Shown here piece by piece: positions 45,266 through 45,808 of a stretch of 64,000 bases of DNA (its first letter is position 1; each line of letters begins with the position of its first letter). A program made the translations under genes and the position numbers. This DNA comes from a virus, in IMG/VR virus record IMGVR_UViG_3300036791_001907, positions 64,001 to 128,000 of that record, one strand, 5' to 3'. The notes beneath the pieces are model-generated. The model saw nothing but the letters and a program-made list of their open reading frames with translations. It had not been told where the DNA came from and made no database searches.

Positions 45266-45808
45266 GTGCAAGAGGTCAAGATCCTGCTCCGCTTTACCAT
45301 CCCCTGTCTCGGCGCGGACAAGCGCTTCCGCGAGGGCCTGGGGACCGTGTTCTGCTTCCCGCGGACGCCCGACGGCCAAGTGCTGTTCCATCAGACCTGG
45401 TGGCGTGCTATTGTGACCCATGCTGCCAGGGTCAAGAATATCCCGACGACGATCATCAAAAAGATCGAATGGTCGCCGGCAATTGACGGCAGTCCACGGC
45501 TCTGGCAGCGCTATATTCATGAGCCGAACCGGCCCGAGAACACACGGGCCCGCTACGCCCAGCATGAGGCATTCCTGCCGGGGCGGGTCATCGGAGTCGA
45601 GTGTATCTTGCCGGTCGATCTTGCGGTCAGCACATTTGCGGCATTGATGGAAGTGGCAGGCAAGTTTCGCGGCATCTCGCCCTACAAGCCGGGCGAGTAT
45701 GGCCGGTTCACTGTCGTATCGGTTCAGGCCGCCGGGAGGGGTATTCCGGAGAGCGACGTGCTGGAAAGCAGCGAGCCCGCCGGAGGGCCATCCGACGGGT
45801 TCGCCTGA
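45266..45808 (+). CDS. Stand-alone Cas7/Csm3-like RAMP protein
   Basis: VKILLRFTIPCLG, FPRTPDGQVLF..TWWRAIV..AA, HEAFLPG..IGVECIL, G-rich loop AGKFRGISPYKPGEYGRFTV; GGAGG RBS with GTG start. Confidence 0.7.
   Translation: MQEVKILLRFTIPCLGADKRFREGLGTVFCFPRTPDGQVLFHQTWWRAIVTHAARVKNIPTTIIKKIEWSPAIDGSPRLWQRYIHEPNRPENTRARYAQHEAFLPGRVIGVECILPVDLAVSTFAALMEVAGKFRGISPYKPGEYGRFTVVSVQAAGRGIPESDVLESSEPAGGPSDGFA

Follow-up and report, generated by a model that had tools for sequence, protein, structure and literature searches.

A small RAMP protein with a predicted Cas7-like fold in the replication and recombination gene block of uncultured phages

Introduction

RAMP proteins are known as the holders of guide RNA in CRISPR effectors and, since 2026, in the VIPR systems of viruses; in the accessible parts of their reports, the authors of the VIPR work argue for a viral origin of RAMPs. 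The Vipr protein of phage SUSP1 (PDB 36pp) is described there as a small RAMP with a single RRM domain and a glycine-rich loop (G-loop), without a second RRM domain (10.64898/2026.04.26.720920, 10.64898/2026.04.26.720927), and section 5 of the latter report assigns to its residues D177, W178 and R179 the holding of the GGY bases. Here we analyse a small RAMP gene found in a virus record of 161,481 bp (IMG/VR IMGVR_UViG_3300036791_001907; genome GC content 65%, CheckV completeness 78%). The gene lies within the window, by which we mean the whole stretch of 64,000 nucleotides (nt) that was analysed, bases 64001-128000 of that record. An earlier note on this DNA had regarded it as the obvious candidate effector for the GGY-NN pentamer RNAs of the phage or, failing that, as a RAMP recruited into phage recombination or replication.

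Like SUSP1 Vipr, the small RAMP is viral and small, with one predicted RRM core and a G-loop. The loop itself differs, reading G-[IVL]-S-P-[YF] where Vipr has GxGDWR, and so does the setting: VIPR loci carry flanking vrRNA arrays, whereas none flanks the small RAMP, which unlike the VIPR island lies inside a replication/recombination block with which it has co-diverged. From Csm3, Cmr4 and type VII Cas7 it is separated by sequence identities of only 6-13%, and from class 1 CRISPR loci by having no CRISPR array, no Cas10, Cas11, Cas5 or Cas6 and no other cas gene nearby. Its upstream neighbour, orf362, has a predicted Nop-domain architecture that is also that of TIGR-TasR and the IS110-family recombinases (PMC12045711), with no sequence-level similarity to either. 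According to the accessible text of that paper the Tas family includes both active and predicted-inactive RuvC members, always next to TIGR arrays; orf362, in contrast, has no such array near it and sits in the replication block.

Results

The small RAMP gene reads from a GTG start behind a GGAGG and, as the earlier note had proposed, is hidden inside a longer spurious open reading frame (ORF) that runs out of frame over the upstream gene (Table 1). GC content at the three codon positions is 0.62/0.49/0.76 in the 180-codon frame, which is the coding pattern of this genome, and 0.53/0.76/0.72 in the first 468 nt of the long ORF. A word-indexed search of 5.8 billion proteins returned 78 candidates, 22 of which proved to be RAMP homologues, all from metagenome sources (JGI, ENA and Logan only). 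All but four of these (18/22) are 169-181 amino acids (aa) long, and their alignment begins at residue 1 of the 180-aa protein; the 180-aa reading is therefore correct. Intergenic gaps of 46 nt upstream and 101 nt downstream separate the gene from its neighbours.

All the motifs named in the earlier note were found, namely FTIPCLG, FPRTPDG followed by the helix WWRAIVTHAARV, HEAFLPG and GISPYKPGEYGRFTV, and the RAMP fold that it had proposed was borne out by structure prediction and by structural searches. The AlphaFold2 model, made with a 16-sequence alignment (pLDDT 85, pTM 0.76), comprises β1 (residues 2-10), a hairpin (18-30), α1 (43-56), strands at 78-83, 97-103 and 108-115, α2 (121-134), the G-loop, β4 (148-155) and a disordered tail (158-180). 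It thereby presents a predicted RRM (ferredoxin-like) core of the order β1-α1-β2-β3-α2-β4, with a glycine-rich loop between α2 and β4 that holds G132, G136, G143 and G146 in GKFRGISPYKPGEYGRF. The structured core spans residues 1-157, the loop residues 132-147 (GKFRGISPYKPGEYGR), and the tail of this protein is acidic. The hairpin 18-30 and the long β2-β3 arm (78-103) are candidates for the thumb hairpin, as judged from the model without superposition of coordinates. Foldseek against the PDB gave 80 matches at E ≤ 1e-3, and every one among the matches listed was a CRISPR RAMP subunit or complex (type VII Cas7, Csm3, Cmr, Cas7-11 and Csf); in a viral structure library three matches passed E 1e-3, one of them named as a RAMP superfamily protein. 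The gene product is thus predicted to fold like a CRISPR Cas7 RNA-binding protein, as a minimal Cas7-type RAMP that consists of a single RRM core with a G-rich loop, together with a short disordered tail.

Neither the RAMP nor orf362 has a family match in Pfam, PHROGs, NCBIfam or PADLOC; a PDB sequence search with the close-family profile yielded only a chance CysK match (E 0.79), and the ESM Atlas gave unnamed viral clusters only, plus sub-threshold leads to PF03787 and Csf3. An exhaustive hidden Markov model (HMM) search of 1.84 billion cluster representatives recovered 229 at E ≤ 1e-3, clustered at 50% identity, with 156 at E ≤ 1e-10. Members were seen only among uncultured viral contigs and in protein sets derived from metagenomes: tblastn of GenBank phages with three family members found no match, and narrow patterns found no relative in species-representative prokaryote genomes. 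Among the 150 members listed, full-length proteins have about 140-260 aa (the longest 259 aa) and no fused domain.

In an alignment of 82 sequences F10, H100, G136 and G146 are invariant, and L15, G16, F41, R82, E101, G106, P116, G132, S138, P139, F148 and V150 are kept in at least 90%. In the model F10, L15 and G16 map to β1, W45 and W46 to helix 1, R82, H100 and E101 to strands of the sheet, and G132, G136, S138, P139 and G146 to the G-loop. Section 5 of 10.64898/2026.04.26.720927 counts β1, the sheet strands and the G-loop among the RNA-holding surfaces of RAMPs. A core of net positive charge is found in 81 of the 82 members (mean +5.5).

The gene occupies a fixed place. Pattern scans of IMG/VR gave 59 RAMP loci on contigs of up to 229 kb, whose neighbours were traced by tblastn, and wherever the flank exists a single order was found: SbcD, SbcC, orf362, RAMP, SF2 helicase, (orf227), DnaB-like helicase, primase and the UDG-exonuclease-PolA fusion. 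orf362 is present in all 59 loci, the helicase, SbcC, primase and PolA in 58 each (the misses falling at contig ends) and SbcD in 54. A scan for a divergent subfamily added 15 loci (14 new contigs) with the same order in 15/15 and a detectable orf362 in 11/15, giving 73 loci in all, as one contig is shared. The distant single members P0162, P0107 and P0151 had no locus in IMG/VR, and the context described here covers the less divergent part of the family. The RAMP start follows the orf362 stop by 1-11 nt in 39/59 loci. This synteny across 73 loci supports the fallback claim of the earlier note, that a RAMP was recruited into phage recombination or replication. The block is common to a clade of uncultured phages with contigs of up to about 235 kb; in cultured phages the relatives of its SF2 helicase are only 22-25% identical, and no cultured model phage was found.

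The RAMP also diverges together with the block. Its pairwise identities correlate with those of orf362 (Spearman rho 0.91), the helicase (0.87), PolA (0.87) and the primase (0.86) over 49 non-identical loci, a value reached in 0/499 permutations. With a mean pairwise identity of 0.58 it is as conserved as the helicase (0.59) and PolA (0.58). To correct for ASCERTAINMENT, the above loci having been selected via the RAMP itself, a second sampling was made through the helicase (the best 80 of 128 loci). With the family HMM a RAMP was detected directly before the helicase in 66 of 79 loci, one further locus being without upstream flank, and orf362 was kept in 78 of the 80. A strictly core gene, which the loci found through the RAMP had suggested, is ruled out by this sampling; the RAMP is a widely kept, vertically inherited and dispensable member of the block.

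The small RAMP is not part of the VIPR guide-RNA system of this phage. A search just upstream of the window, which the earlier note had advised, did reveal a second RAMP gene: a 303-aa Vipr that ends 334 nt before window position 1. The statement that the small RAMP stands alone, with neither CRISPR array nor other cas genes, accordingly holds for the window, where no CRISPR-like direct repeats were found and where the scanned neighbours included no cas gene (all six scanned with Pfam and PHROGs, orf362 and orf227 also with NCBIfam and PADLOC), and needs qualifying for the record, in which this Vipr lies. The profile of the Vipr family matches the solved SUSP1 protein with E 1.2e-5, and the sequence matches 151 GenBank phage records, including those of Felixounaviruses and mycobacteriophages. 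Pentamer arrays, located by a period-5 Fourier scan, lie on both sides of it, so this Vipr is the obvious effector of the GGY-NN RNAs; near the small RAMP, about 42-47 kb from the arrays, the same scan of this genome gave no period-5 signal. The pentamer RNAs of this phage are already served by their own effector, and a wrong lead is thereby removed.

Comparison with related genomes leads to the same result. The closest relative (G001; 226 kb, 100% complete) keeps the RAMP at 86% identity with no match to Vipr and no period-5 cluster of three or more scan windows. Ten RAMP-bearing records, 97-100% complete by CheckV, were searched for Vipr, and a homologue was found in one (1/5 searched by single sequence, 0/5 by profile). 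This record, the complete 198-kb genome G004, served as a positive control, with a Vipr homologue (32% identity, E 1.4e-10) beside a strong array, whereas the Vipr-less G007 has no period-5 array (maximum 3.20). Pentamer arrays therefore accompany Vipr in 2/2 genomes and are missing from 2/2 Vipr-less complete genomes that keep the RAMP. The co-occurrence of small RAMP and arrays that the earlier note had advised checking is not the rule: 69/73 RAMP loci have no period-5 cluster within 10 kb, and in the remaining four the signal is either a coding 15-nt repeat (two loci) or lies at least 6.8 kb from the RAMP (L013 and L104), the latter being probably the VIPR arrays of those phages.

The VIPR island of this record is the largest piece not covered by blastn against G001, which covers 107,714 of 161,481 bases. 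Its flanks map about 2 kb apart in G001, and the whole looks like an inserted or exchanged accessory island. It also holds a 177-aa gene downstream of Vipr with no Pfam match. An isolated 5-nt periodicity at window positions 21351-21450 (intergenic stretch 21313-21682; P5 4.7, three scan windows, NNNGG/NNAGC-like units) may represent a solitary vrRNA far from the island.

At the sequence level the relation between the small RAMP and Vipr is borderline. BLASTP against the Vipr of the same phage was not significant, and hhalign against the clade of that Vipr gave a probability of 0.8%. Against a broader Vipr alignment, composed of Felixounavirus LMP25, mycobacteriophage Donkeykong and the own-phage clade, hhalign gave a probability of 30% and E 5.5e-4 over 117 colinear columns from helix 1 to β4, and SUSP1 Vipr was the top, non-significant, PDB sequence match of the RAMP family profile (E 0.25). 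GxGDWR is invariant in eight Viprs from three clades; the aligned positions of the small RAMP, in a low-confidence alignment, are S138-P139-Y140. We conclude that the small RAMP is probably a distant, borderline-detectable relative of the viral Vipr proteins, which may be closer to them than to Cas7, that it is without the GG reader of Vipr and that its locus falls outside the definition of a VIPR locus. The NCBI-derived Vipr set is probably without this family, because its homologues come only from JGI, ENA and Logan and GenBank phages held no match to the three members tried.

For the neighbour orf362 a start at 44188 is probable, since the alignment with its relatives begins near residue 20 of the long ORF. 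Its model (pLDDT 89.8, pTM 0.89) pairs an N-terminal domain resembling RuvC/RNase H with a helical domain resembling Nop, a predicted TasR-like arrangement. A PDB sequence search returned chance CsgG matches only, and the ESM Atlas no usable match. At the end of β1, presumably the usual position of the first RuvC aspartate, 18 of 24 sequences have histidine. Acidic residues are conserved at E81 (D/E in 19/24), D127 (24/24) and D183 (24/24), positions that were read without residue-level superposition. Tandem Repeats Finder (TRF) on the 59 loci and this genome reported coding-type repeats only and no TIGR array near orf362. A complex prediction of orf362 with the RAMP core, run without controls, gave no answer (score 0.00) and is neutral either way.

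A possible RNA partner was also sought: the window gave no match to Rfam and no tRNA, and within 10 kb of the RAMP no tandem arrays were found in the 59 loci. Recurrent ORF-free spots upstream of SbcD (L017, L019, L024, L030 and L047, at about 4300-4900) look tRNA-like by eye, unconfirmed by ARAGORN.

Table 1. Features of the window, of the preceding part of the record and of related loci. Positions are those of the window unless otherwise stated.
Feature	Position	Strand	Remarks
Small Cas7-like RAMP gene (predicted fold)	45266..45808	+	180 aa; GTG start
Shine-Dalgarno-like GGAGG	45255..45259	+	read from sequence; 6 nt 5' of the GTG at 45266
Spurious 5' extension of long ORF 44798-45808 (336 aa)	44798..45265	+	out of frame over upstream gene
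CsrA homologue	40273-40473	-	Pfam CsrA, E 7.4e-23; just upstream of SbcD gene
SbcD/Mre11-like phosphoesterase	40896..42023	+	Pfam Metallophos; syntenic in 54/59
SbcC/Rad50-like ATPase	42024..44156	+	Pfam SMC_N, AAA_23; PHROG 77; syntenic in 58/59
orf362	44188..45219	+	343 aa from ATG 44188 (probable start; ORF opens 44131); predicted TasR-like
SF2 helicase (ResIII + Helicase_C)	45910..47451	+	directly downstream of RAMP; 58/59, the 59th contig ends there
orf227, conserved, function unassigned	47467..48150	+	no Pfam, PADLOC or NCBIfam match
DnaB-like replicative helicase	48150..49829	+	PHROG 19; synteny
DnaG-like primase	50080..51192	+	ORF opens 49660, start unsettled; weak sub-cut-off Pfam DNAG_N; 58/59 loci
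Uracil-DNA glycosylase-family (UDG) domain + 3'-5' exonuclease + family A DNA polymerase fusion, 1216 aa	51246..54896	+	clade-wide conservation
RecA-like protein	57947..59500	+	Pfam RecA 26.6 bits, just under the 27-bit curated cut-off
VIPR island	record 60771-67890 (window -3229 to 3890)		7.1 kb; largest segment without counterpart in closest complete relative
Vipr, 303 aa	record 62755-63666 (window -1245 to -334)		GFGCGIGDWR loop
Pentamer arrays	record 62261-62520, 64721-65860, 66261-66900 (the latter two = window 721-1860, 2261-2900)		period-5 Fourier scan
Array and Vipr homologue of G004:C1	64921-65740 and 66240-66857 (own contig)		P5 10.1, 26 scan windows
Period-5 arrays about 7 kb upstream of RAMP	L104 2181-3220; L013 2301-2840 (own contigs)		L104: 18 scan windows, P5 7.8

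Further features of the window and of the related loci were noted. The CsrA gene, which encodes a phage RNA-binding regulator, partly overlaps the predicted start of a 186-aa plus-strand ORF (40345-40905). A class II ribonucleotide reductase at 14148-17870 contains an intein that carries an HNH endonuclease domain. In L016, L021, L034 and L037 (about 10500-11970) the helicase match starts some 1.5 kb after the RAMP and covers the C-terminal two thirds only, which suggests an insertion (intein, intron or homing endonuclease) in the helicase gene of these phages.

Discussion

On the evidence of fold, conserved surface and genomic place, we hold it to be somewhat probable that the small RAMP serves the recombination/replication module as an accessory factor that binds single-stranded nucleic acid. 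It would bind its ligand through helix 1, the face of the β-sheet and the G-loop; RNA is the likelier ligand, because of the fold and of the conserved G-loop and helix-1 surface. In this way it would assist recombination-dependent replication, possibly in partnership with the TasR-like protein whose gene lies 1-50 nt upstream. The block itself resembles the T4-type set for this mode of replication (gp46/47, UvsW, UvsX, gp41/61 and gp43), in that it likewise encodes Rad50/Mre11-like proteins, an SF2 helicase, a RecA-like protein, a DnaB-like helicase, a primase and a polymerase. It differs from the T4 set in that no single-stranded DNA-binding protein (SSB), helicase loader or resolvase is annotated in it, and T4 is not known to encode a RAMP-fold or Nop-fold protein.

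Several observations weigh against this proposal. In 13 of the 79 testable loci found through the helicase there is no RAMP match even at E 100, and the RAMP is therefore not an essential part of the replisome. orf362 is kept in 11 of these 13 and can therefore work without it. In a FastTree phylogeny of 69 non-identical helicases the loci without RAMP group into a single clade of six (support 1.0) besides five singletons, so that the RAMP must have been gained or lost six times or more; the root state is ambiguous. Tail length ranges from 2 to 106 aa, and the tail is not consistently acidic, its net charge being negative in 45, zero in 15 and positive in 22 of the 82 members. No array, Rfam family or conserved non-coding stretch was found beside the RAMP, and no RNA or DNA ligand emerged. 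The support consists of predicted structures and uncultured contigs, with a record that is only 78% complete, and the neighbourhood is no proof of function, since conserved slots can also harbour conflict genes.

In most of the 11 RAMP-less loci with orf362 this gene ends 200-450 nt before the helicase, leaving no room for a RAMP. Other small genes also occur in the slot between orf362 and helicase of RAMP-less loci, such as a 173-aa frame in L157 and L159 (3175-3693), and L181 carries several unrelated ORFs there (2159-3687).

Among the other explanations the one that survives best, though we consider it unlikely, is that of a divergent VIPR-type or otherwise RNA-guided conflict system, which would use the conserved slot against competing elements with a guide encoded elsewhere or not of pentamer type, and for which the RuvC-like neighbour and the SF2 helicase would perhaps be 'vap'-like accessories. 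VIPR types III-V do have predicted nuclease or helicase accessory genes according to the accessible part of 10.64898/2026.04.26.720920, the colinear profile match and the top, non-significant, PDB match both point to Vipr, orf362 resembles an RNA-guided nuclease, and the dispensability of the RAMP with its repeated gain or loss fits an accessory conflict gene. However, arrays are missing within 10 kb of nearly all RAMP loci and anywhere in two complete genomes, and the GDWR reader residues are absent. Unlike typical arms-race genes, the RAMP evolves at the slow pace of the polymerase and the helicase, with which it co-diverges; SbcCD, the helicase and orf362 are retained where the RAMP is missing and are thus not its accessories; and the NCBI-derived Vipr set is probably without this family.

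Somewhat less likely again is that the RAMP is the SSB or recombination mediator of the module, an RRM-type replacement of the OB-fold SSB on the single-stranded DNA delivered by SbcCD and the helicases. PF00436 is absent from 6/6 genomes (the present record and five complete relatives), and neither PF08804 nor PF10991 matched in five genomes, in searches for the gp32 and Enc34 families in which no positive control responded. The core is basic, the gene lies between nuclease and helicase genes, and the protein and its close relatives end in an acidic disordered tail (...SEPAGGPSDG[FL]x) of a kind that is reminiscent of phage SSB tails. On the other hand, the fold is that of a RAMP and not an OB fold, RNAs are the known ligands of RAMPs, many members have a short or basic tail (only 2-4 aa in some), and absence from 13/79 relatives would be odd for a sole SSB. 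Moreover orf227, orf359 or orf593, unannotated proteins of the block, could be the SSB.

A role of the RAMP as a second effector, or as a Cas6-like assembly or processing factor, for the GGY-NN vrRNAs of the phage itself is very improbable. The RAMP fold and the pentamer arrays do share one genome, and the invariant His100 and the nearly invariant Glu101 might in principle serve catalysis; yet a canonical Vipr sits inside the arrays, which are far from the small RAMP, the GG-reading residues are not conserved in the latter, and the closest relative and nine of ten near-complete genomes do without Vipr. The primary claim of the earlier note, that the small RAMP is the effector of these RNAs, is not supported, on the same grounds. 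Least probable of all is that the resemblance to Cas7 is that of a generic RRM-like fold in an unrelated small replication accessory protein, for which speak the lack of significant similarity to any Cas7/RAMP Pfam family and the borderline nature of the Vipr profile match.

Returning to an accessory factor of replication and recombination, we can imagine a more specific form of it, to which we give only a small chance, a shade below that of the SSB. The RAMP and its TasR-like neighbour might together form an RNA-dependent device with a housekeeping role in phage replication or recombination, a non-defence and possibly ancestral use of folds that later gave rise to CRISPR and VIPR on one side and to TIGR and IS110 on the other. 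Such a device might, for example, hold a phage transcript on DNA as an R-loop and so start replication, or else aim the RuvC-like domain at a defined site in order to start recombination-dependent replication.

We found in the literature no description of a RAMP/Cas7-like protein in a phage replication module or paired with a TIGR-Tas/TasR-like protein, in a survey that covered the VIPR reports apart from their figures and data tables. In their accessible text, the TIGR-Tas paper (PMC12045711) mentions neither RAMP, Cas7 nor helicase, 10.64898/2026.09.09.750476 neither RAMP, Cas7, replication, helicase nor SbcC, and 10.64898/2026.10.15.759431 neither RAMP, helicase, SbcC nor the term stand-alone. 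A helicase-associated VIPR type, as outlined in the accessible part of 10.64898/2026.04.26.720920, might conceivably overlap with this family. The RAMP is thus placed in a new genomic, and probably also a new functional, setting: a sizeable array-less RAMP family is carried in a replication/recombination block, beside a protein of predicted TasR/IS110 architecture. If it does bind RNA there, the protein would be the first of the RAMPs to have a housekeeping function in genome replication, and a concrete candidate for the role that RAMPs played before guide-RNA effectors arose from them.

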